Shown in pieces: positions 1,143-30,033 of a stretch of 43,835 nt of DNA (position 1 is its first letter; every line of letters begins with the position of its first letter). Made by a program: the position numbers and the translations under genes. The notes below the pieces were generated by a model. That model was not told the DNA's origin and did not search any database. It saw nothing but the letters and a program-made list of their open reading frames with translations. Where the stretch lies: the NCBI GenBank assembly GCA_029977385.1, contig JAPOKZ010000004.1:1-43835 (forward strand), in the 5' to 3' direction. This stretch comes from Methanobacteriota archaeon (GTDB lineage: Archaea > Thermoplasmatota > Poseidoniia > Poseidoniales > Thalassarchaeaceae).

Positions 1143-2129
1143 GTGACGATTGCTCAAGGTGGTGGATCTAGCTCTAAAGACCTGATTAGATCTGTCTCAG
1201 GGCATGCTAACAACCTGATGAGCGAGGTAGCCAAGGTCATCATAGGAAAGCCCGAGAACATCAGAAAGGTAGCCATTGGGATCCTAGCAAATGGAAACAT
1301 CCTGATCGAGGACAATCCAGGTCTGGCCAAGACCTTGATGTCAAACACATTCGCGGAGGCACTCGGATGCAAGTTCAAGAGAGTACAGTTCACTCCTGAC
1401 CTTCTTCCTGCTGATATTATCGGGACGTACATGTACGACCAGAAGACTGGTGAGTTCAGACCAAGGTTCGGACCTCTGTTCACCAACATACTCCTAGCAG
1501 ACGAGATAAACAGAGCCCCTCCAAAGACGCAGGCCGCATTGCTAGAGGCAATGGAGGAGAAGCAAGTAACCATTGAAGGAATCACTCACAAACTACCGGC
1601 CCCATTCGTGACAATGGCTACCCAAAACCCGATAGAACAGGAAGGGACATATCCGCTTCCTGAGGCTCAAATGGATAGGTTTCTCATGAAAATGAGCATG
1701 GGATACCCTTCAATGGATGAAGAGAAGGCAATCCTACAGAGGAGGAAGCTACGTGGGAAGGACAACTATGATGTGGAGCAGATAGTTGAGCCTAGGAAGG
1801 TGGTAGCGATGCAGAAGGCCCTTGAGACGGTCCATATCGATCCAGCAATCCTTGGTTACATCGTTCAAGTAGTTCAGAGGACAAGGGCAGACCCGAGAAT
1901 AGAGGCTGGAGCATCCCCCAGGGCTAGCCAAGGTCTGTTCAAGGCTTCAAGAGCGTCAGCAGCTATCGATGGAAGGGACTACGTCATTCCTGACGATGTC
2001 AAGGGAGTGGCTCTTGACGTGGTCAGTCACAGAATCGTCCTAAAGCCAGAGTCGAAGATCCGCGGTGTAACTGGAAGGAGGGTCGTGAACAAGATTCTCA
2101 GCGAAGTGAACGTCCCTGTCATCCAATAA
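1143..2129 (+). CDS. MoxR-family AAA+ ATPase
   Basis: Walker A PGLAKT, RVQFTPDLLPAD, Walker B LLADEINRAPPKTQAALLEAMEE, ATQNPIEQEGTYPLPEAQMDRF, GASPRAS. Start codon uncertain. Confidence 0.95.
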   Translation: MTIAQGGGSSSKDLIRSVSGHANNLMSEVAKVIIGKPENIRKVAIGILANGNILIEDNPGLAKTLMSNTFAEALGCKFKRVQFTPDLLPADIIGTYMYDQKTGEFRPRFGPLFTNILLADEINRAPPKTQAALLEAMEEKQVTIEGITHKLPAPFVTMATQNPIEQEGTYPLPEAQMDRFLMKMSMGYPSMDEEKAILQRRKLRGKDNYDVEQIVEPRKVVAMQKALETVHIDPAILGYIVQVVQRTRADPRIEAGASPRASQGLFKASRASAAIDGRDYVIPDDVKGVALDVVSHRIVLKPESKIRGVTGRRVVNKILSEVNVPVIQ

Positions 2130-2168: not shown

Positions 2169-3071
2169 GTGGCTATTGTGATTGCTTGTGTCAACCACAA
2201 GGGAGGATGTGCTAGGACGACCACGGCGGTGAATCTTGCATCGGCCCTTTCTCTAGGGAGCGAGGAGTACGGGATTAGTAGCAGGAGGGTTCTGCTGGTA
2301 GACATGGATCCGAAGGGGAACGTGGCAACGACATTCGGAGTTGACAAAAGAACAGTCGGACCTACGATGAACGAGCTTTTTTCGAGGGGTGTTGATAACT
2401 CTGCACTAAAACTAGAGGACTGCACTCTTGGACCAGAATTTCTGACTAGGTCGATGAAGACATCATGGAGAAAGAGTAATCCGGAGAAGGTCAAGGGTCC
2501 GCCTAATCATATCGTAGTACGAAACTTATGGGTTCTTCCAGCTGACTTGGACCTATCTGGAATAGAAGTAGACCTAGCGACAAGAGTCGGTAGAGAGAAC
2601 AGACTCAAGCTGGCTCTGAGTGAAGCCATGGATAGTTTCGATGTTATCATTATCGATACTCCGGCATCACTAGGACTACTGACTGTGAATGCTCTGTGCG
2701 CCGCGGAGTGGGTCCTAATCCCAATCCAAGCAGAGTTCTATGCTCTGGAAGGAATGGGGCAGTTGATTTCCACGGTTAGAGATGTACAGAAATCGGTTAA
2801 CCCTAGTCTTGGATTGCTGGGCATACTGATGACGATGGTCCAGACTAGAAGCAAACTATGCGAGACAGTAACCGAGCACGCTAGGAAACACTTCGGGGAT
2901 AGAGTGTTTGATTCTCAGATACCGAGATCCGTATCTATCGCGGAGTCTCCTCTGGAAGGGGCTCCCATTGTAATAGCACAGAAGCCGAACAAGACAAACT
3001 CTGCAAGTAGAGCTTACTGGGAGTTCGCAAAGGAGGCAGACAGCAGAATCAATGCAATTTCTGATAGTTGA
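2169..3071 (+). CDS. ParA/Soj-family ATPase with atypical Walker A (KGGCARTT)
   Basis: NHKGGCARTTTAVNLA, VLLVDMDPKGN, IIIDTPASLGLLTVNAL, IPIQAEFYALEG, IPRSVSIAESP. Confidence 0.9.
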   Translation: MAIVIACVNHKGGCARTTTAVNLASALSLGSEEYGISSRRVLLVDMDPKGNVATTFGVDKRTVGPTMNELFSRGVDNSALKLEDCTLGPEFLTRSMKTSWRKSNPEKVKGPPNHIVVRNLWVLPADLDLSGIEVDLATRVGRENRLKLALSEAMDSFDVIIIDTPASLGLLTVNALCAAEWVLIPIQAEFYALEGMGQLISTVRDVQKSVNPSLGLLGILMTMVQTRSKLCETVTEHARKHFGDRVFDSQIPRSVSIAESPLEGAPIVIAQKPNKTNSASRAYWEFAKEADSRINAISDS

Positions 3072-20594: not shown

Positions 20595-21280
20595 GTGGGC
20601 TCATGAGTTACAGCGATGTTGAGCCGGGATTCATCCCGCTTGAATACTCGGAGGTGGAAGAGGCAGAGATGCTTCGAATTGCGAAATCTTACTATGACCA
20701 AATGAACTCAAGGAGGACCACGCGTCACTTCTCCAACAAGAAAGTACCTAGAGAGTTGGTAGAATTAGCAATCAGGACTGCCAGCACAGCTCCCTCAGGG
20801 GCGCATCTCCAACCCTGGACTTTCGTGGCGATTTCAAACAGCGAGCTGAAGTCAAGGATAAGAGAGGCGGCAGAAGAAGAAGAGAGAAGATTCTACCAAG
20901 ACAGAATTCCGGAAGAGTGGGAGGAGGTCCTATCGCCTCTGGGAACAGACCACGTGAAGAGGCACATCACAGACGCACCTTGGGTTGTTGTACTATTCAG
21001 ACAATCAAAGAGGAAAAGAGGAGAGGGTATGGCTCCCACATACTACTCTCAAGAGTCCTGTGGGATCGCTGCTGGGATGTTCATCTCAGCAGTTCACAAT
21101 ATGGGCTTAGCGACCCTCCCCCACACTCCTTCCCCAATGGGTTTCCTTAGGGAAATCCTAGGACGCCCAGAGCATGAGCACGCAATGCTGCTGCTTCCAG
21201 TTGGTTATCCAGCAGAGGATGCAAGGGTACCAAATCTGGAAAGGAAGAGGCTCGAAGAGGTGTCCGAGTTCTGGGATTGA
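20591..21280 (+). CDS. Nitroreductase-fold FMN protein, iodotyrosine deiodinase (IYD)-like
   Basis: RRTTRHFS, TAPSGAHLQPWTFV, lid IREAAEEEERRFY...LGTDHVK, HTPSPMGFLREILGRP, LLLPVGYPA...VPNLERK. Confidence 0.85.
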   Translation: MSGLMSYSDVEPGFIPLEYSEVEEAEMLRIAKSYYDQMNSRRTTRHFSNKKVPRELVELAIRTASTAPSGAHLQPWTFVAISNSELKSRIREAAEEEERRFYQDRIPEEWEEVLSPLGTDHVKRHITDAPWVVVLFRQSKRKRGEGMAPTYYSQESCGIAAGMFISAVHNMGLATLPHTPSPMGFLREILGRPEHEHAMLLLPVGYPAEDARVPNLERKRLEEVSEFWD

Positions 21281-21309
21281 TTAAGTATCTCAGATTTTCA
21301 GGATGTTCC

Positions 21310-22542
21310 ATGAAGAGCAACAGAAGGAATGCCTTAGCGATTCTGCTAGCCCTACTAATGACCGCCTCTGTCCTATCCGGTTGCTCCGGAACTGACGAGG
21401 AATTGGATGACGAGCCCAAGGAATTGGAAGACTGGAGCGTTTTCCTAGTCCAGAGTTCTTCGGATCTTCCAACTTGCGATATCGTAACCGACGGAAGGCT
21501 CTACTATGTATCTTCAGAGTCAGGATTCCATGCATGCTCGAACGGTGCATGGCAGTCCATCGAACTAACTGGGCCCCCTGGGCCTCAGGGACCAGCTGGG
21601 GCTGACGGAGCAGACGGATCGATAGGGCCAGCAGGACCTGCAGGTGCTGACGGAGCAGATGGATCGATAGGTCCGTCTGGGCCTCCTGGGGCTGACGGGG
21701 CTGACGGGGATGATGGTACCTCTTTCACAATTATTGGAACCGTGGAGGAAACCACCGACCTGGGAGAGATATACATCGGAGAATCAGGAGACGCGTTCCT
21801 AGTTAACTCGACCGTTCACATCCATGTCTGGAGTGGGTCCGAATGGATAGATCTGGGGAACATCTCGGGACCACAGGGCCCGTCTGGGGAATCTGGTCCA
21901 GAGGGACCTATCGGTACAGAGGGTCCTCCCGGTGCTGATGGACTCTATGCACTCATCGACAGCACTGCATTGTCGACAGGAAGCGCAAACTGCCCAATGG
22001 GCGGAAATGCTGTGAGAATAGGGATGGATGATAACGGTGACGGGAATCTTGATCCTCTCGAGGTAGACCAGACCTTGTACGTCTGCAATGGAGTAAACGG
22101 TGTAGACGGAAATGACGGGACCGATGGCGCAGATGGGACCGATGGCGCAGATGGGACCGATGGCGCAGATGGCGCAGATGGCGCAGATGGTTCAATGCCC
22201 GTGGTGATGGAGATGACGGTCACCGTTTCGAGCATGGATTTCTACATTGATTCTATTCAACAGGCGGATGTAACACTATACAGGGGGTTCACCTACACCT
22301 TTGACCAATCTGCTTCTAGTAACTCCGCACACCCATTCAGACTGTCTACCACTAGTGATGGGACTCATGGAGGAGGAACCCAGTACACTGACGGGGTGAC
22401 GTATACGGGGACTCAGGGGTCGAGCGGCCTAATGACCTTCACAGTTCCATTGGATGCACCTGACACTCTGTACTACTACTGCCAGAACCACGGAAGCATG
22501 GGCGGAGAAATAACAATTCAGTCCCTAGGAAGCGTTTCCTGA
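21310..22542 (+). CDS. Collagen-like surface lipoprotein with C-terminal cupredoxin-like domain
   Basis: RR plus hydrophobic stretch and lipobox LSGC, three G-X-Y runs, a CPMGG...DDNGDGNLD...VCNG module, and C-terminal HPF...YYYCQNHGSM. Confidence 0.85.
   Translation: MKSNRRNALAILLALLMTASVLSGCSGTDEELDDEPKELEDWSVFLVQSSSDLPTCDIVTDGRLYYVSSESGFHACSNGAWQSIELTGPPGPQGPAGADGADGSIGPAGPAGADGADGSIGPSGPPGADGADGDDGTSFTIIGTVEETTDLGEIYIGESGDAFLVNSTVHIHVWSGSEWIDLGNISGPQGPSGESGPEGPIGTEGPPGADGLYALIDSTALSTGSANCPMGGNAVRIGMDDNGDGNLDPLEVDQTLYVCNGVNGVDGNDGTDGADGTDGADGTDGADGADGADGSMPVVMEMTVTVSSMDFYIDSIQQADVTLYRGFTYTFDQSASSNSAHPFRLSTTSDGTHGGGTQYTDGVTYTGTQGSSGLMTFTVPLDAPDTLYYYCQNHGSMGGEITIQSLGSVS
21598..21687 (+). 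repeat. Two imperfect 45-bp tandem units in the collagen region
   Basis: Units start at 21598 and 21643, both encoding GADGADGSIGPxGPx. Confidence 0.85.
22117..22188 (+). repeat. Perfect coding tandem repeat (GGGACCGATGGCGCAGAT)x3 + (GGCGCAGAT)x2
   Basis: Read directly from the sequence; encodes GTDGAD x3 and GAD x2. Confidence 0.92.
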
Positions 22543-23490
22543 TTCGCTATTCTCTTCTGGTGGGAAGACGAAGACAAGTGCGATTCCAGACCCCACGACC
22601 AATGCACCCCCCAGCCAATCTGCGAGGGAAAGCGATTCACCGAATAGGAAGAAGCCGTAGAAAGTTGCAACGAGTACCGTAAGGTAGGAAAATGCACTAA
22701 CCCATGCAGCATTGGCCTTATGGTATGCCATGGTGATTCCTAATTGTCCCCCTCCGGCACCGATTCCGATACCAACTAGAGCTGCAATAGTGTTTGAGTC
22801 AATCTCGGAGATATTTGGTACGGACTGGACTATGCTTCCAGCAACAGAGAAGGCTGCGAACCAGAATATGACGGTAGCTGGAGAGTCGGTCTTTCTGAGT
22901 TCCCTGACGTACATGTATGCCAATGCCGCGAAGAATCCTGAACCTAGAGCAAGAAGAGCGTTAGGATCTACAGTTCCTACCTCTGGAGAGACAATTAGAA
23001 CAATTCCAGCGAAAGCGGTCAGTACCAGCGTTGTCACCGACGGGGAAACCCTCTCGGCCAATATCCTCCCAGAAAGTAGAGCAACGAATAGAGGACCAGT
23101 GTACTGGAGAGTTACAGCCTGACCAATTGGAATCCTTCCAAGTGCGGTGAAGTAGAGAATCATGGCAATTAGCCCTACTACGCACCTAAGCAACATGGTC
23201 CTGCGATCGTTTACCTTCAGACTAATTCCCTTAGAAGCGGCGAAGGCTGCAACTGCAAAGGCGATAACGGCTGATCTGACCATGATTATCATCCAAACAT
23301 CAGTGTGGTCGCTAGTCCATTTGACTAATGCATTCATGGTCCCAAAGCAGATGCTTCCAAAGATCATCCAGATGACCGCTGCCTTGGGGGAGTCGGGCAT
23401 CCTTTCCTCGGTTACGAAAGACGACAGGTCCGGACCTTCAGTTTTGTAGAAAATCTCATCTAGACCCCTACCAAGACCACTTTTAGACAT
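22525..23490 (-). CDS. EamA/DMT-family membrane transporter with N-terminal ParB-like LGRGL peptide
   Basis: About 10 hydrophobic helices with DMT motifs (LLRCVVG, ALGRIPIGQAVTLQYTGPLFVALL, LAERV, AYHKANAAWVSAFSY, FLFGE). In-frame N-terminus MSKSGLGRGLDEIF begins 3 nt after the parA stop. Confidence 0.9.
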   Translation of the reverse strand: MSKSGLGRGLDEIFYKTEGPDLSSFVTEERMPDSPKAAVIWMIFGSICFGTMNALVKWTSDHTDVWMIIMVRSAVIAFAVAAFAASKGISLKVNDRRTMLLRCVVGLIAMILYFTALGRIPIGQAVTLQYTGPLFVALLSGRILAERVSPSVTTLVLTAFAGIVLIVSPEVGTVDPNALLALGSGFFAALAYMYVRELRKTDSPATVIFWFAAFSVAGSIVQSVPNISEIDSNTIAALVGIGIGAGGGQLGITMAYHKANAAWVSAFSYLTVLVATFYGFFLFGESLSLADWLGGALVVGSGIALVFVFPPEENSESGNAS

Positions 23491-23493
23491 AAT

Positions 23494-24444
23494 TCAGAGA
23501 CTCCATCTGTGTTGAAGCTCTGTTGCAATATCCTGGTAATCTTTACCGCCAGGGCTAGAAGGATCGTGTAGATGGATAGGAATCCCGTGACTCGGTGCCT
23601 CGGCGAGTCTTACGTTCCTCCTGATCGCTGGCCTGACGACTAAGTCAGGGAAGTTTTCCAAGACCTCTCCTGCAACCTGCTTGTTCAGAAGTGTCTGGGA
23701 GTGCATCGTCAACAGTACTCCATCCACTCCTAATCTCTCGTTGAGTAGGCTCCTTACTTCTCTGATGGTCCCTGATAGCAAAGCTAGTCCCTCAAGAGCG
23801 AAGTATTCCGTCTGGACAGGGACTAGAATTCCATCAGAGGCCACTAGTGCGTTGATTGTTACCAGACCTAGTGAAGGAGGGGTGTCGATTAGAACCAGAT
23901 CGTAATGTGCTAGAAGTGGTTGAAGTGCCTCCTTCATTCTCTTCTCCCTTCCAAGCTGTCTCATCATCTCCTGCTCTAGTCCGATAAGGCTCCTGTCTCC
24001 GACTATGATGTGTAGGTTCTCTACGGCAGTTGCATGCCTGGAGTCTACTGCTGTCTCTGGACTAAGGATTAGGTCCCTTGTGGTATTCTTGACTTTGCTC
24101 TTATCCACTCCTAGACCTGTGGCACAGTTCCCCTGTGAATCTGAGTCAATAACCAGGACTCTGAACCCTCTAAGCGCAATCTGAGCTGCGACGTTGATTA
24201 CTGTGGTAGTTTTGCCCACCCCTCCCTTCTGATTAATCACGGTAACTACTCTGCCCCTCCCTGGGGGAGTGGGCAGGGAAGTTGGGAGTTCCATCGCGCT
24301 TTTAGTCCGCGAAAAACTGACTTCCTCGATTGAGTCAAGAGGTTCGGCTAGAGTTTCGTCCTCTTCTTCCATGAATTCGACATCGATAATTAGTGGAGCC
24401 TTGCCGACTTCTGGAAGACTTTGGTCACCATCCTTCGAAGCCAT
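23494..24444 (-). CDS. parA: ParA/Soj-family ATPase with acidic N-terminal extension
   Basis: INQKGGVGKTTT, IDSDSQGN, IDTPPSLGLVTINAL, VPVQTEYFALEGL, IRRNVRLAEAPSHGIP. Confidence 0.93.
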   Translation of the reverse strand: MASKDGDQSLPEVGKAPLIIDVEFMEEEDETLAEPLDSIEEVSFSRTKSAMELPTSLPTPPGRGRVVTVINQKGGVGKTTTVINVAAQIALRGFRVLVIDSDSQGNCATGLGVDKSKVKNTTRDLILSPETAVDSRHATAVENLHIIVGDRSLIGLEQEMMRQLGREKRMKEALQPLLAHYDLVLIDTPPSLGLVTINALVASDGILVPVQTEYFALEGLALLSGTIREVRSLLNERLGVDGVLLTMHSQTLLNKQVAGEVLENFPDLVVRPAIRRNVRLAEAPSHGIPIHLHDPSSPGGKDYQDIATELQHRWSL

Positions 24445-24513: not shown

Positions 24514-26604
24514 TCACTCGCTAGGTCTGTCGATGAGCCACCAAATTACCATCTCTCCAGTCTCCGAGTCCATGGCCAAATCAACTGACATTTCTCGTCC
24601 GGCTTCTTCCCATTCCCTAACTGCGTTCATTGTTACCTTTCCATCTCCCAAGTCACCTGGAAGGAGGCTCAGGACCTCATTATCCTCTGTGACGGATAGC
24701 CTGTAACCAACCTCAGCTTGGAGGTTCCAAGATTCTCCGGACTGGATGTATGGAGACAGGGCAGGATACCTCTCGGGTTCCAGAATCCTTGATTCCAGTA
24801 AAGAGAGAGTCTGAGTACTAGGGATAGAGTCTCTATTCCAAGTCACCTCTCCCCTATCATTAGAGCCCGTTGAAATCATCTCACAGCCTTCAGATGATCT
24901 CCGAAGTACCAGCCAACCAGAGTCATCGTCATCGTCAACCCAAGACATGTTCCATTCCGGTTCAGAAGTAGGCCTCGACCAAGAGGCCCTCCAGATATAT
25001 CCTCCAGATTCTACAGCCAAGGTTGCCTGAGTATCCGGATATCTAGATTTGAGGCAAGCTACTGCCTCCTCCATATCGAACTGTCTAATTTCTGTTTCGT
25101 CCCACATGGAGTCAACCCAGTTCCTCTTTGTTGATGTGCCTGGCCTATCCTCACCATCTGCGGGACTCCCTGGATAGTTCCTTTCCCAATCGATTTCACT
25201 ACTTCCGATAGTAGAAGAAATTCTGGAGAATGTCATGCTAATACTGAGAGTTCCTTCGGGCAGGAGTTCATCCGATAGGGTGCTAACTAGGAAGTCGCAA
25301 TCGTTTGTCTGGAGTTCCTTGTCCAGCCTTATGTCAGCAACCTGCTTGACAGGCCAAGGACTCCCATCCTTCAGGTGCAGTAGAATTGTAGCATGCCCAT
25401 AGCACCTTCCAATTTCCTCATGATCAAGATAAACAGGATACACTAGACCATGAGTATCATCCCTGAACTCCTTCTTCACTTCCCATTTCCAATCGGAATT
25501 CCAGCCTAGATCTGGATCGGAAGAACTCGCTCCCTCCTTGATCACGGCCTCTCCAAAGAATTCGTGTAGCTCAATTGGGGTTAGTGGAAAGGAAAGGGTG
25601 GGTAAGAGAGCACCCAAACCTCCGATTCCCTCAGAGTCGTAGGTTACCGTCCTAGCATTCGTTGTTACCGAATCCACGTCGCTGAACGAGATTGAGGTAT
25701 CGGTCCTCTTCACCTCTGTCTTCTCCAGTTCCACCCAGCTGGTTGACTCCATACTCAGGTCATTTCCGGACATTACCCAACGAATATTCCCACAGTCTGT
25801 GTTCGCATCGTCCCTCCAAGTTCTTCCCTCGAAATCAACGTCTAGATCGAGTCTTATTCCCTTCTCTGCAGACAAGAAACCTGTTCTTCCTAGGCTATCT
25901 GTAGTTTCTACTGCTCCCGAATTAGGTCCTTCGGTTACTGATACCAAACCAGTACCACCCATATCCATCGACACCTCCCCACATGCCGGTTCAAGAATCC
26001 CACCACTAGAGTCCCTCACCACAGAGAGCATCTCCTCCCCGTCTATGCTTATTCTCGAGTCGATTACCTGGAAGTCCATCCTATCTCCATACCTCAACTT
26101 CGCTACCTCGAAACCCGAACTACGTTGTAGGAAAACGGTAGTTGCTGCCCCCACGAGGATGACCACAACTATGATCGCTGCTAGGGCCTTCCATTTGTCT
26201 CCCAATGAAGAAATAGAAGGCATAGAGATGACCAAAGAAGGCTGATCGTCCTCTGCCACTATTACCGATTCAGCATCCCCGGATATCTCAGATTCCGTTG
26301 TTAAGACCTCGGCCTCGACAACCTCGGCTTCCACGATGTTATCGATTTTAGATAGGACCTGATTCACCTTTACTCGTGTATCATCTGGTTCTTCATCCAT
26401 GACTAGAGCGTCCTCTTGCTCCCAATCGTCTTCTTCGGAAATTTCTACAGGCTCCTCAATCACCCCTGCATCCTCAAGTATTCTATCTACCAATTCCGAT
26501 TTCTTTCCCGAGACAAGTAGTCCCCGCTTCTTGCACATTTCCCTAAGCTTCGCAACCGTGTTCGAGGTAAGCGACTCTCTGTCAATTGAATCGTCTTCGG
26601 GCAT
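24514..26604 (-). CDS. SAP-domain single-pass membrane protein
   Basis: N-terminal SAP motif LTSNTVAKLREMCKKRGLLVSGKKSELVDRI, acidic linker, one TM helix (ALAAIIVVVILVGAATTVFL), then about 535 aa of acidic, Trp/Cys-containing sequence. Confidence 0.82.
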   Translation of the reverse strand: MPEDDSIDRESLTSNTVAKLREMCKKRGLLVSGKKSELVDRILEDAGVIEEPVEISEEDDWEQEDALVMDEEPDDTRVKVNQVLSKIDNIVEAEVVEAEVLTTESEISGDAESVIVAEDDQPSLVISMPSISSLGDKWKALAAIIVVVILVGAATTVFLQRSSGFEVAKLRYGDRMDFQVIDSRISIDGEEMLSVVRDSSGGILEPACGEVSMDMGGTGLVSVTEGPNSGAVETTDSLGRTGFLSAEKGIRLDLDVDFEGRTWRDDANTDCGNIRWVMSGNDLSMESTSWVELEKTEVKRTDTSISFSDVDSVTTNARTVTYDSEGIGGLGALLPTLSFPLTPIELHEFFGEAVIKEGASSSDPDLGWNSDWKWEVKKEFRDDTHGLVYPVYLDHEEIGRCYGHATILLHLKDGSPWPVKQVADIRLDKELQTNDCDFLVSTLSDELLPEGTLSISMTFSRISSTIGSSEIDWERNYPGSPADGEDRPGTSTKRNWVDSMWDETEIRQFDMEEAVACLKSRYPDTQATLAVESGGYIWRASWSRPTSEPEWNMSWVDDDDDSGWLVLRRSSEGCEMISTGSNDRGEVTWNRDSIPSTQTLSLLESRILEPERYPALSPYIQSGESWNLQAEVGYRLSVTEDNEVLSLLPGDLGDGKVTMNAVREWEEAGREMSVDLAMDSETGEMVIWWLIDRPSE

Positions 26605-26735: not shown

Positions 26736-27686
26736 ATGGAGCCAAGGCTAGTACTACTCTCCAGAGGTCCAGAGCTGTACAGTACCAGAAGGCTGGCTAC
26801 AGAGGCAGAGAGAGCAGGATGGATGGTTGACATCATCGATCCTCTTGCGCTAACCATCGTCGTAGATGAGGACGGCGGAAGAGTGTTCCACAAGGGATGG
26901 CCCGTAGAGTGCGAGGCCATCTTGCCTAGAATCGGCTATTCCATCACCCGCAGAGGAGTTGCGATAGTCAGGCAGTTCGAACAAACCGGAGTGATAGTAC
27001 TCAACTCGAGTCAGGGAATTCTGAGAAGTAGGGACAAGCTGGTGGCTTGCCAGATGATGGCTGAGGCTCGCGTTCCGGTTCCTATTACGGCGCACGTTGG
27101 AGCATGGGAGGACACTGATCGCGCTGTTAGGAGGGTCGGAGGAGCTCCGTGTGTCGTCAAGTCAACAGAGGGGACCCATGGCTCAGGCGTTTTTCTGGTA
27201 AACTCTTCGCCGCAGGCCAGACAACTGGTGTTCCAGATGCTTGAGAGAGGAATGAGGCCTCTGGTACAGGAGTATGTCAAGGAGTCACACGGTAGTGACG
27301 TTAGAGCACTAGTTGTTGGCGGAGAGGTTGTTGCATCGATGCGACGCAAGGCACATGGGAGCGAGTTCCGCTCGAACTTCCACCTAGGGGGGTCAGTTAC
27401 AGGAGTAGATTTGACGGAAGAGCAGAGGAGAATTGCTACACTTTCTGCAGAGACTCTGGGGCTCGAGGTGGCAGGAGTAGATATGCTCGAGTCGGACAGA
27501 GGGCCATTGGTGCTGGAAGTAAACTCCAGCCCGGGACTAGAGGGGATCGAGAGTGCAACCAAGGTAAACGTAGCAGAGAAGGTGGCAAATCACCTTCACG
27601 GGCTCTATTCCAAGAGAATAGAGAGTTCAGGAGATTCTCAGTTCCCCATCGGTTCCAGCGGAAACGAGTCCGAGCACGCTCTGTGA
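26736..27686 (+). CDS. rimK: RimK-family ATP-grasp alpha-L-glutamate ligase
   Basis: LLSRGPELYSTRRL, ILPRIG, SRDKL, GTHGSGV, VQEYV, FRSNFHLGG, GVDMLES, LEVNSSPGLEGIE. Confidence 0.9.
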   Translation: MEPRLVLLSRGPELYSTRRLATEAERAGWMVDIIDPLALTIVVDEDGGRVFHKGWPVECEAILPRIGYSITRRGVAIVRQFEQTGVIVLNSSQGILRSRDKLVACQMMAEARVPVPITAHVGAWEDTDRAVRRVGGAPCVVKSTEGTHGSGVFLVNSSPQARQLVFQMLERGMRPLVQEYVKESHGSDVRALVVGGEVVASMRRKAHGSEFRSNFHLGGSVTGVDLTEEQRRIATLSAETLGLEVAGVDMLESDRGPLVLEVNSSPGLEGIESATKVNVAEKVANHLHGLYSKRIESSGDSQFPIGSSGNESEHAL

Positions 27687-27822: not shown

Positions 27823-27880
27823 AGAAGGGTTGAACAAAGAAGGGAGAAACAGAGAGACGGTATTCGCACCAAGAGGGAGA

Positions 27881-28948
27881 TTGGGCCAGAGGTTCGATTC
27901 TGATGATGTCGGTCTTTCTGACACGCTGCCTTCGAGATTGTACAGGATTTCAGAGCTTCAATGGCACGAATGCTGGTTACAACAGCTCCGCTCGGAAAAA
28001 AAGAGTGCGCACACCATTAGAGCATACGACGTGGCAGCTAGAGCGTTTTCAACCACCTCTCTTCCGGGAGAAGGGGCTCTGGCATGGGGGGATTCTTCCA
28101 GAATTCCAGTGAGAGATTTCCATCTCTTTGCCGATCCAAACAATGGAAGAATGGATGCTTGGATGAATGGACTCGGGGAGCTTAAGCCAGCTACCATTAA
28201 TGCAAAGATTGCTGCCCTAACCCACCTTTTGAAATGGCTCGGTCACATCGTCCCGGACTGGATACAAAGGCCATCTAGAAGTCGGTCTCTTCCGAAGACT
28301 CTGGGCAAAAGAGAGTTGGATAGACTCAGAAGGGCAATCAGCGATTCCGAAGACCCGTTAGCAATGCCCGTATCCACTCTGATGCTAGATACTGGGCTAA
28401 GGGTCTCGGAGCTTTGCGCTCTCGATATTGACGACATAGACAAGGAAGACCTATCGGCGTTGGTGATAGGTGGTAAGGGAGAGAAAGATAGAACCGTACT
28501 ATTCACGAAAAAATCGGTTGAAGTCCTGGAATCATGGGAGCCTATCAGAGAGAGTAGGATCAGGGGGAGCGAAGACTTCGGTCTTAGGGCTATGTTCGTT
28601 TCTAGCAGAGGGCGCAGAATCAACCCTCGCTCGATACAGAAGATGATGGACAGACTAGCTGATGCCGCAGACATCCCGAAGAGCAGGCTTAGCCCCCATA
28701 CACTGAGGCATACTTTCGCTACTGGCCTACTAGAGAGGGGTGCGGACCTGGTCACCATCCAGAGACTTCTAGGACATTCGAGCATAGCAACCACCAGGGT
28801 ATACCTGGAGATAGGAGATCAGACCCTCAGAGAGATTTACCACAGGGCGCAGAGGAGCCCTCCTCCTAGACTGGAATCTGAAACGAATGAGGATGAAGTT
28901 CAGGAGATGGTGGAGAAGTCGGCAGGAAGTATTCCAACGGAGCTCTAG
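27881..28948 (+). CDS. xerA: Tyrosine recombinase XerA-like
   Basis: Full catalytic set: TGLRVSE, GKG, HTLRH, LLGH, TTRVY. Start uncertain (TTG 27881 after GAGGGAG; ORF extends to 27830). Confidence 0.88.
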   Translation: MGQRFDSDDVGLSDTLPSRLYRISELQWHECWLQQLRSEKKSAHTIRAYDVAARAFSTTSLPGEGALAWGDSSRIPVRDFHLFADPNNGRMDAWMNGLGELKPATINAKIAALTHLLKWLGHIVPDWIQRPSRSRSLPKTLGKRELDRLRRAISDSEDPLAMPVSTLMLDTGLRVSELCALDIDDIDKEDLSALVIGGKGEKDRTVLFTKKSVEVLESWEPIRESRIRGSEDFGLRAMFVSSRGRRINPRSIQKMMDRLADAADIPKSRLSPHTLRHTFATGLLERGADLVTIQRLLGHSSIATTRVYLEIGDQTLREIYHRAQRSPPPRLESETNEDEVQEMVEKSAGSIPTEL

Positions 28949-30033
28949 TCAGAGAAGTTTACCTTCCAACCATACTCATCCAAGTGGAACCAGTTCACAA
29001 TGAACTCCTCTTCCTTGTAGGAGAACCAAGCTCTTGTGGGCACAACGCTAGTGTATCGATCATGCTGGACCCTCTTGATCGTATCAGATATTTCCGAGTC
29101 CAGATACGTGAAGCCCTCCCACAGCCTTCCCTTCTTGATTAGGAATTTCTCTTCCTTTGGTTGTTCTTTGAAGTGCATCCCCCTCCAGAGGAAATAAGGC
29201 CAACCATCGCGATCGTCCAATTCTGATATCTTACCGTAAGAGCCCCTCATAGAAGGCCTACTGTCCAGAAGATGGCTGACTACGGGAATCTCGGATCCAT
29301 CTCTTCCCATTCTGATGATTATGTATGCACATGTGTGATACGGCGCCCTTGGGAAGCCATCCTTGGGAAGCATCAGTGGCCTAACGGCACTGAAATCGAT
29401 CTCCTGGAATTCTTCTGTGAGCCTTACAGAGCCTCCAATACCTCCATCCCCCCCATTATGTAGCACGTCTATCTCTCCAAACTCACTGATCCAACCCTGA
29501 TCTGCCTTGACCTCGAGTCTCGCCTCGCTAAGTGGCCAGTCCCAGAACGTCATCGACCTCTCTTTTCGCACAGCAGAGCTAACTCCAGAGAGGTTTGAGC
29601 TAACTTTTCCCTCGAAAGATTTAGGCATTCCAGAGTGGATTCTTGCAATTATTGGAGTTCCTGCGTTTCTCACCTCTACTTGTGCTTCCAGCTGTAGTGG
29701 AGCCTGAAGCCTCTCACTGTCAAATCCAAAAATAATTGAGAACTTGTTTGGCTTTGAGAAAATCTCCTCGCTGGTAATCCTGAGAGCATCGTATCTCTGG
29801 CCCCTTCTTTTGGAGACTATCTCGACGTTCACTAAAGGTTCCTCACCCCCGTCAAGTCCCAAGACCTGCGCAGTACAAGTCAAGTCAGGAAACCTACCAG
29901 AGAGGAAGATTGGTTCGAAGAAGAAGTCTGCAACGTAGGGGTCAATTTCAATTGAGTTCTCCCCTACATCCACGACACACCGTATTCTCCCTAGGTTCTG
30001 CCCAGAATAATCAGGCACAGAAGAATTAGTCAT
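28945..30033 (-). CDS. Hypothetical protein (362 aa)
   Basis: Long ORF with ATG start and a TTCAA box 29 nt upstream. No recognised motif. Confidence 0.7.
   Translation of the reverse strand: MTNSSVPDYSGQNLGRIRCVVDVGENSIEIDPYVADFFFEPIFLSGRFPDLTCTAQVLGLDGGEEPLVNVEIVSKRRGQRYDALRITSEEIFSKPNKFSIIFGFDSERLQAPLQLEAQVEVRNAGTPIIARIHSGMPKSFEGKVSSNLSGVSSAVRKERSMTFWDWPLSEARLEVKADQGWISEFGEIDVLHNGGDGGIGGSVRLTEEFQEIDFSAVRPLMLPKDGFPRAPYHTCAYIIIRMGRDGSEIPVVSHLLDSRPSMRGSYGKISELDDRDGWPYFLWRGMHFKEQPKEEKFLIKKGRLWEGFTYLDSEISDTIKRVQHDRYTSVVPTRAWFSYKEEEFIVNWFHLDEYGWKVNFSD

Follow-up and report, generated by a model that had tools for sequence, protein, structure and literature searches.

A near-universal SAP-domain membrane protein of the marine archaeal order Poseidoniales is a candidate membrane-to-nucleoid tether

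We analysed a stretch of 43,835 nucleotides from a Thalassarchaeaceae archaeon (assembly GCA_029977385.1, contig JAPOKZ010000004.1, positions 1 to 43,835), hereafter the window, and in it a gene on the minus strand (24514..26604) whose product combines an N-terminal SAP domain, an acidic linker, a single predicted transmembrane helix and a large predicted ectodomain. The window is ordinary chromosomal DNA, with genes for aIF5B, EF-1alpha, a family-B DNA polymerase, cytochrome oxidase subunits and two tRNAs, and close relatives of the SAP gene come from records of marine group II euryarchaeotes, Candidatus Poseidoniales and Thalassarchaeaceae. In the surface ocean, few archaea are as abundant as those of marine group II; they are uncultured, and their cell biology is known only from genomes. 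All genome-wide statements below rest on the genomes of relatives, not on the genome to which the window belongs. The gene is made up as follows (positions in the window).

24514..26604, minus strand: whole gene, an open reading frame of 696 amino acids (SAP, acidic linker, transmembrane helix, ectodomain)
26473..26571, minus strand: SAP domain, residues 12-44 (Pfam PF02037)
26191..26460, minus strand: acidic cytoplasmic linker, predicted disordered, residues 49-138 (composition, AlphaFold2 confidence)
26302..26334, minus strand: conserved acidic-hydrophobic motif VEAEVVEAEVL, residues 91-101 (alignment)
26122..26190, minus strand: single transmembrane helix, residues ~139-161 (Kyte-Doolittle, AlphaFold2)
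25165..26121, minus strand: membrane-proximal ectodomain, residues 162-480, predicted large antiparallel beta-barrel with invariant Cys 208, 271, 401 and 436 (AlphaFold2 fold of the domain alone)
24517..25164, minus strand: distal ectodomain, residues 481-696, two predicted helix-plus-sheet modules with invariant Cys 517 and 574 (AlphaFold2 secondary structure, whole model)

Pfam assigned the SAP domain to residues 12-44 with an E-value of 8e-10 and 38.5 bits against a cut-off of 23.9, which bears out an earlier reading of the DNA made from its letters and open reading frames (the sequence-only reading), where a SAP motif had been placed at about residues 11-45. In the AlphaFold2 (AF2) model, helices at residues 17-26 and 35-45 were predicted with a local confidence score (pLDDT) above 90, giving the two-helix core with a conserved Gly in between that is expected of a SAP domain. 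Among proteins of solved structure in the PDB, the region matched by sequence the SAP domains of Ku70 (1jjr, 3e-4) and Tho1 (4uzw, 6e-4), the latter reaching 1e-6 when the family profile was used for the search. We also searched 48,161 chains with VIA-align, for which best Z-scores of 7-8 are, by the tool's own account, typical of models without a true relative; here the SAP region of the whole model aligned with the N-terminal domain of Rho (1a62; Z 5.9, root-mean-square deviation (rmsd) 2.5, 44 residues aligned). No HeH match was found by Pfam at E≤0.1 in the protein, for which only SAP and SAP_new25 were listed, NCBIfam holds no family for it, and outside the SAP domain no Pfam, NCBIfam or PDB profile matched any part of the 696 residues. 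In public records its homologues are named ‘hypothetical protein' or ‘SAP domain-containing protein'.

The other parts seen in the sequence also stood. The D/E-rich linker of about 90 residues corresponds to residues 49-138, where 28 D/E and 4 K/R are found in 90 positions; AF2 gave pLDDT below 50 at residues 51-75 and 86-131, so that the linker is predicted to be disordered. Hydropathy analysis (Kyte-Doolittle, 19-residue mean) revealed a single strong peak, 2.85 from residue 141 (the runner-up reaches 1.26), and AF2 modelled a helix at residues 138-159, that is, at window positions 26128-26193, where the single transmembrane helix had been expected. The part described as about 535 residues with scattered Cys and many Trp comprises residues 162-696 and contains 6 Cys and 20 Trp.

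Four indicators agree on a type-II (N-in) single-pass topology. The N-terminal part of about 140 residues lacks a signal sequence and has a net charge of -24. Summed over 35 members of the family, K/R occur 85 times in the 15 residues preceding the helix and 40 times in the 15 residues after it, though these are related sequences and the count is a weak indicator. The six invariant Cys are all found after the helix, and paralogous SAP carriers of the lineage have their SAP domain across the membrane from Peptidase_M28 or from Cys-rich Ephrin_rec_like repeats, types of domain expected outside the cell. The predicted orientation is thus that of the sequence-only reading, with the SAP domain in the cytoplasm and the 535 residues outside, where their cysteines may form disulfides; going by their order along the chain, the pairs would be 208-271, 401-436 and 517-574. 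A role in DNA uptake, which had been among the functions proposed, we reject, because the SAP domain would lie inside the cell and a single helix gives no channel.

Nearly all genomes sampled from the marine group II/Poseidoniales order have the family as a core gene, and no relatives were detected outside the order. A clustered sequence collection yielded 216 homologues at E≤1e-3, and among the 120 listed a SAP domain was found in all but two shorter ones. A representative library yielded 177 proteins at E≤1e-3, 39 of them at E≤1e-30; its full-length relatives have 680-870 residues, and beyond those only fragments and SAP-only matches were found. We built a family profile from 35 diverse sequences (24-72% identical to the query), and it matched in 151 of 151 genomes sampled from the order, in 146 of them at E≤1e-100. 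The remaining five scored 1.8e-70 (genome G004) or about 1e-11 to 1e-13 (G010, G063, G081 and G085), the latter being the level of a SAP-only match. In a phylum-wide sample, with one gene listed per genome, 63 of 301 genomes matched at E≤1e-15, and all 63 were already in the order sample; the family was not found in the other 238 phylum genomes searched with the same profile at that threshold, the assemblies being incomplete. In two studies, RNA-library contigs match parts of the gene at ≥99% identity; this is a weak observation, as such libraries may contain DNA.

The layout of the protein is kept in full-length relatives down to 24% identity, which shows that the architecture is more than chance. 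All regions are under constraint: mean pairwise identity among the 35 sequences is 0.41 in the SAP domain, 0.32 in residues 162-480 and 0.34 in residues 481-696, with 0.27 in the linker and 0.28 in the transmembrane helix. Invariant across the alignment are L20, G33 and R41 of the SAP domain and C208, C271, C401, C436, C517 and C574 of the ectodomain, and the C-terminal part has several further invariant Trp, Gly and Pro. The linker varies in length from 72 to 256 residues and keeps a D/E content of 22-49%, as expected of a spacer. Within it, A93 and E94 of the acidic-hydrophobic motif are at least 90% conserved, and the pattern h-E/D-A-E-h-h-E/D-A-E/D-h-h (h, hydrophobic) recurs in most of the 35 rows.

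We then considered the fold of the ectodomain. The whole-protein AF2 model, based on an alignment of 68 sequences, had a mean pLDDT of 81 and a global confidence score (pTM) of 0.70, with most of the ectodomain above 90. Residues 162-480 folded alone gave a confident model (pLDDT 90.4, pTM 0.88) of a large antiparallel beta-barrel with few helices. The AF2 and Foldseek analysis that had been proposed for the C-terminal part delivered a confident model, but fold matches of twilight strength only. In VIA-align the barrel matched CymA (Z 11.2), autotransporter barrels (Z ~10), LolA (8t5j, Z 9.3, rmsd 3.3, 148 of 154 residues aligned; 8cgm, Z 8.9), the DUF1849 protein 6ntr (Z 9.2), lipovitellin (Z 9.2), LolB (Z 8.2-8.3), RseB (Z 7.6) and MucB (Z 6.7), and the whole model had 6ntr at the top with Z 10.1. 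Overall, barrels of the LolA/LolB/RseB type scored Z 8-10 over 148-195 aligned residues, and porins scored equally; since the barrel domain is highly acidic and looks soluble, the porin matches are likely to reflect shape. Foldseek placed four 6ntr chains first for the barrel (probability up to 0.99, E 2.8e-4 to 9.6e-4; 6ntr_A 0.99, E 4.8e-4), followed at low probabilities by MucB/RseB (ranks 5-10) and LolA3. For the whole model its template-modelling scores did not exceed 0.31 against the PDB and 0.18 against viral models, and we draw no conclusion from either. Further matches came from VIA-align of the whole model only: residues 504-691 to the putative lipoprotein 4exr_A (Z 8.3, rmsd 3.6, 140 of 152 aligned), and residues 504-588 to N-domains of copper amine oxidases (Z 6.3). 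A search of the ESM Atlas recovered clusters of the family itself and, as a weak lead, DUF3108 (0.77). By shape, and at twilight strength, the barrel may be called a LolA/RseB/DUF1849-like open barrel, rather than a member of any of these families.

Open barrels of the LolA/RseB/DUF1849 type hold lipids or other hydrophobic ligands in known proteins. It is conceivable that the ectodomain is the working part of the protein, which would bind or shuttle lipids or other hydrophobic molecules at the surface or contribute to envelope structure, the SAP tail being a generic appendage of the lineage for placement or turnover. Conservation of 535 external residues with six invariant Cys and many invariant Trp would fit such a role, as would the matches to lipid-binding barrels of LolA, LolB, the LppX type and lipovitellin/ApoB (Z 8-9) and, as a lead only, DUF3108. 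The fold matches, however, are only at twilight level and extend to membrane porins of similar form, and the best-conserved region of the protein is the SAP domain. We regard this explanation as improbable.

The SAP domain turned out to be a recurrent cytoplasmic tail in this lineage, found also on ribosomal and RNA-linked proteins, which the sequence-only reading could not see. Three genomes of relatives gave 4 SAP matches each. In a larger census (201 phylum genomes, 36 of the order and 165 others, and 14 control genomes), 36 of 36 order genomes had 3-9 matches, and 38 of the 165 others had any, mostly one (5 in G178 and 4 in G308); no SAP match was found in 14 of 14 controls. The single-contig genome G006 (2.06 Mb) has nine carriers, four to five of them membrane proteins with the SAP domain on the predicted cytoplasmic side.

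Carrier 1: N-terminal SAP, acidic linker, ribosomal protein eL32
Carrier 2: FKBP_C isomerase with C-terminal SAP
Carrier 3: ribosomal protein eS1/S3Ae, acidic linker, C-terminal SAP
Carrier 4: Pus10 (tRNA pseudouridine synthase) with inserted SAP
Carrier 5: member of the family of the 24514-26604 protein
Carrier 6: N-terminal SAP, transmembrane helix, Peptidase_M28
Carrier 7: N-terminal SAP, acidic linker, transmembrane helix, repeat ectodomain
Carrier 8: small protein with N-terminal SAP, a Cys-rich (zinc-ribbon-like) stretch apparent from its translation and two transmembrane helices
Carrier 9: second such small protein, with a weak Pfam zinc-ribbon match and a SAP match below cut-off

The eL32 and eS1 fusions are also present in G001 and G002, where a giant Ephrin_rec_like repeat protein (open frames of 1082-2498 residues) has a transmembrane helix, an acidic linker and a cytoplasmic SAP domain. 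The soluble carriers lie at loci L093, L094, L095 and L098 (G006) and L089 and L090 (G002), and the membrane carriers at L097:820-2745:-, L099:658-2397:-, L096:596-1477:-, L100:950-1528:+ and L086:3304-5073:-. On eL32 and eS1 the paralogous SAP domains gave HeH matches below cut-off. Thus, two ribosomal proteins and several membrane anchors have in common a SAP ‘hook' on an acidic ‘line', while two other proteins linked to RNA or translation also carry SAP. The 24514-26604 protein is one member of this lineage-wide SAP-tailed set, and its universal member.

Since SAP is also attached to ribosomal and RNA-linked proteins, its target might instead be RNA or the ribosome. In this lineage the SAP domain might bind structured RNA or the ribosome, so that this protein and the other SAP-tailed surface proteins would keep ribosomes or mRNA close to the membrane. 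This would suit the four soluble carriers of G006 and the eL32 and eS1 fusions of G001 and G002, and weak sequence matches of the SAP domain to SAP-like parts of uL30 (E 0.095) and mS159 (E 0.41) in solved ribosomes point in the same direction. It is hard to rationalise, however, why proteins already within the ribosome should carry a ribosome-binding tag, and the best sequence matches are to DNA-binding SAP domains. Moreover, eukaryotic SAP domains are thought to bring proteins that process or handle RNA to DNA or chromatin, and a similar use would also explain the soluble carriers. We consider a tether to RNA or the ribosome unlikely, yet a serious rival, because every soluble carrier is linked to translation.

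It is also conceivable that the protein is a one-component regulator similar to ToxR or CadC, one of the roles originally proposed, for which no positive support emerged. The barrel would sense a hydrophobic or envelope signal and alter DNA binding by the SAP domain, and hence transcription, with the acidic motif perhaps being autoinhibitory. The parts follow one another as in such regulators (DNA-binding domain, linker, one transmembrane helix, Cys-containing external domain), the barrel resembles the sensors RseB and MucB in both structural searches, and the linker, with its short conserved motif, may do more than act as a spacer. On the other hand, Pfam found neither a winged helix nor any other transcription-factor domain at E≤0.1, only SAP, and SAP domains are not known to act as sequence-specific regulators. 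That ribosomal proteins, a giant repeat protein and a peptidase have the same tail speaks for a generic targeting role, and a single-copy core gene throughout an order would be unusual for an accessory sensor. Such a regulator therefore seems rather unlikely.

The neighbourhood of the gene is described from two sets of loci, 26 from close relatives and 20 on long contigs spanning the range of profile scores across the order. In the window the neighbours are as follows.

23494..24444, minus strand: ParA-type ATPase of 316 residues, downstream neighbour (Pfam AAA_31 6e-54, CbiA, MipZ)
22525..23490, minus strand: EamA transporter, next gene (Pfam EamA 2e-25 from residue 38)
23380-23490, minus strand: ParB-like ‘GLGRGLDEIF' peptide, first ~37 residues of the EamA protein (28 orthologues)
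26736..27686, plus strand: RimK-family alpha-L-glutamate ligase, divergent upstream, start codon inferred (Pfam RimK 2e-49; NCBIfam rimK_fam 226 bits, cut-off 143)
27830..28948, plus strand: Xer-type tyrosine recombinase beyond RimK (Pfam Phage_integrase 1e-36; NCBIfam XerC and XerA_Arch below their cut-offs)

Among the close loci, all 26 have ParA next to the gene on its downstream side and on the same strand, and in 25 EamA comes after ParA (one locus ends too early), while RimK is divergent upstream in 22 (four loci start inside the gene) and Xer is found in 21. Across the order RimK adjoins the gene in all 20 loci and Xer lies within 6 kb in 15; ParA is present in 8 and EamA in 3. Two observations concern the RimK side. 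The eS1-SAP and FKBP-SAP fusions end in Glu, RimK being a conserved neighbour of the SAP gene; and some lineages of the order have, between RimK and the SAP gene, an additional gene of 369-422 residues without a convincing Pfam match (L065:4800-5906:+, L071:8247-9512:-). Beside Xer, in 20 of the 26 close loci, is a gene for a 362-residue protein (28945-30033 on the minus strand in the window; 66-95% identity) without a Pfam match. Convergent with the EamA gene, at 21277-22542 on the plus strand, lies a gene for a 421-residue protein that has collagen triple-helix repeats and DUF7151 and in which a hydrophobic stretch at the N terminus precedes a Cys; it is probably a surface lipoprotein-like protein. 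A second ATPase of the ParA/MinD type (AAA_31, 6e-43), which appears to be a paralogue common to all order genomes checked, directly follows a MoxR-type AAA ATPase elsewhere in the window (1143-2129 and 2169-3071, both plus strand). Finally, a contig titled Acidiferrobacter sp. (L025) carries the whole archaeal locus (the 362-residue protein, Xer, RimK, the SAP protein, ParA and EamA) at 66-81% identity; it is probably mis-binned, the rest of its assembly (G390) having bacterial parAB.

We analysed the ParA module further. Before its first membrane helix the EamA protein starts MSKSGLGRGLDEIF...PDLSSFV, a peptide conserved in 28 orthologues. In lineages without EamA, ParA is followed by a gene for a soluble protein of 140-197 residues with the same N-terminal peptide, KKGLGRGLGDLLAQHDTDLPFL (L071:4481-4957:-, L072, L068, L058, L076), with which the EamA peptide aligns; these soluble proteins had no Pfam or NCBIfam match. 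For comparison, the ParB of the bacterial parA-parB pair in the genome of L025 starts ...ARLGKGLDALLG. According to a published study, a short peptide with the N-terminal ParB motif suffices to stimulate the ParA ATPase in vitro, and about half of the chromosomal ParBs have Lys instead of Arg at the central position of the motif (PMC12462528). The N-terminal aliphatic/basic ParA-binding motif, as given in that paper, is absent from the SAP protein and present on the EamA gene two downstream. Sequence searches with the EamA peptide gave only a chance MCM match (phmmer, PDB) and nothing among plasmids (tblastn). A predicted complex of a ParA dimer with ATP/Mg and the 40-residue EamA N-peptide scored 0.22 against a mark of 0.32, which gives no verdict, and we use it neither way. 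The ParA module most likely has its own activator, judging from these peptides. If a ParA-activating peptide is indeed fused to a transporter, the transporter or the membrane would be a partner of nucleoid-bound ParA.

These neighbours raise the possibility that the SAP protein is the third, DNA-binding and membrane-fixed partner of ParA and the ParB-peptide gene in a machine for segregation or positioning. The gene lies directly upstream of ParA on the same strand in all 26 close loci and in all 8 ParA-bearing loci across the order. The gap in the window is 69 bases without a T-run, and one RNA-library contig bridges the junction, although a contig over two genes does not show one transcript. 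In addition, no ParB_N (PF02195) match above cut-off was found by Pfam in three order genomes. ParA and its partner are missing, however, from 12 of the 20 order-wide loci, and no ParA orthologue was found in four larger order genomes that keep the SAP protein (the best match, 38-40% identical, is a paralogue also present in G001). The SAP protein itself has no Pfam ParB_N match, and the peptide of ParA-activating type is on the gene after ParA, not on the SAP protein. A ParA-driven machine of this kind is, in our view, quite improbable.

Taken as a whole, the evidence is best accommodated by a membrane-to-nucleoid tether, a reading to which we give a probability of roughly 40%. Nucleoid anchoring was among the roles first proposed for the protein, and it remains a plausible one. 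Outside the cell there would be a disulfide-bonded domain, composed of a LolA/RseB/DUF1849-like open beta-barrel and two small alpha/beta modules, which may fix the protein in the envelope or report on the envelope. Inside, a flexible acidic tether of about 90 residues (~30 nm if extended) would end in the SAP domain, the acidic line holding the hook off the membrane. Double-stranded nucleic acid, in the first place nucleoid DNA, would be what the hook binds, without much regard to sequence. The SAP-tailed set (two ribosomal proteins, the FKBP isomerase, Pus10 and surface proteins) could in this way gather translation machinery and membrane anchors on the nucleoid. Domain architecture, conservation, distribution among genomes and the SAP census are results of the analysis; topology, disulfides, binding to nucleic acid, the identity of the target and the cellular role are what we infer. 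We favour nucleoid DNA as the target because the closest solved SAP domains by sequence are those of Ku70 and Tho1, because genes of chromosome maintenance adjoin (Xer and, in part of the order, ParA), and because a DNA tag would add something new to proteins built into the ribosome, as an RNA or ribosome tag would not.

Several points weigh against the tether to the nucleoid. Specificity of a SAP domain for DNA or RNA cannot be read from its sequence, and binding is predicted. The soluble SAP carriers in the same genomes (eL32, eS1, FKBP and Pus10) are all linked to translation or RNA, and fit RNA or the ribosome as a target at least as naturally. The strongly conserved ectodomain is more than a passive anchor needs; since fold matches such as those of its barrel are common for models without a true relative, lipid binding may be taken as a lead only. 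The four genomes without the ParA orthologue indicate that the SAP protein does not depend on this ParA and that its segregation context is not universal. A ParA with its own ParB-peptide partner makes the SAP protein less likely as a ParB equivalent. Finally, in two single-contig genomes the gene lies ~0.3-0.65 Mb from Cdc6 genes, and we claim no link to an origin.

A wider form of the same idea is that SAP serves as a general nucleoid-targeting tag in marine group II, which, hanging from acidic tethers, would bring several surface proteins, a tRNA-modifying enzyme, a folding catalyst and the two ribosomal subunits together on the chromosome, with the 24514-26604 protein as the universal trans-envelope anchor. 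We think this unlikely; if true, it would be a prokaryotic counterpart of nuclear-envelope chromatin tethering and of the handling of RNA during transcription. With its external domain connected through the membrane to a domain predicted to bind nucleic acid, the product of this order-wide core gene is, in any case, a candidate for attachment of the chromosome or the translation machinery to the envelope. SAP tails on eL32, eS1, FKBP, Pus10 and surface proteins show that this lineage makes its own use of a domain generally viewed as eukaryotic, and the soluble fusions offer several small constructs for testing targets in vitro. Our literature search found no paper joining ‘SAP domain' with this lineage or these fusions. 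In a paper on Poseidoniales-specific protein families (PMC9258230), SAP is not mentioned in text passages and two supplementary files, and its other supplements could list the family.

We compared the protein with known systems. Its modelled barrel resembles, at twilight strength, LolA/LolB, RseB/MucB and DUF1849 proteins in size and topology (6ntr, Z 9.2-10.1), but there is no sequence match to them, porins score equally, and here the domain is about twice the length of LolA, with two predicted disulfides and a transmembrane anchor. Regulators of the ToxR/CadC type have an OmpR-type winged-helix domain at the N terminus, an N-in single-pass topology and an extracytoplasmic Cys-containing domain. 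The topology predicted here, with a putative DNA-binding domain in the cytoplasm and a Cys-containing domain outside, would be alike; in contrast, the protein has SAP in place of an OmpR-type winged helix (Pfam, E≤0.1), a much longer, acidic linker and an external domain unrelated by sequence. With the SAP domains of Ku70, Tho1, SARNP/Hcc-1, MKL1 and DEK it shares a sequence match at residues ~7-50 and, in the model, the same two-helix core, whereas those are soluble nuclear proteins of eukaryotes and this one is archaeal and membrane-tethered.

Inner-nuclear-membrane proteins with HeH or LEM domains (Heh1/Heh2, MAN1, LEM2) have two transmembrane helices and a C-terminal MSC/winged-helix domain. 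They resemble the protein in having an N-terminal domain of helix-extension-helix type for binding nucleic acid or chromatin, predicted in the present case, a long disordered linker, a membrane anchor and the remainder on the far side of the membrane. The differences are a Pfam SAP domain rather than HeH or LEM, one transmembrane helix instead of two, the lack of an MSC/winged-helix domain, and a far side that is the cell exterior and carries a large beta-barrel, in an archaeal host that has no nucleus. By its features the protein is a member of the SAP domain family only, and not of the HeH/LEM or ToxR-like proteins. The likeness to eukaryotic chromatin tethers, drawn already in the sequence-only reading, thus holds only as an analogy of design, and common descent is indicated at most for the small SAP/HeH fold.

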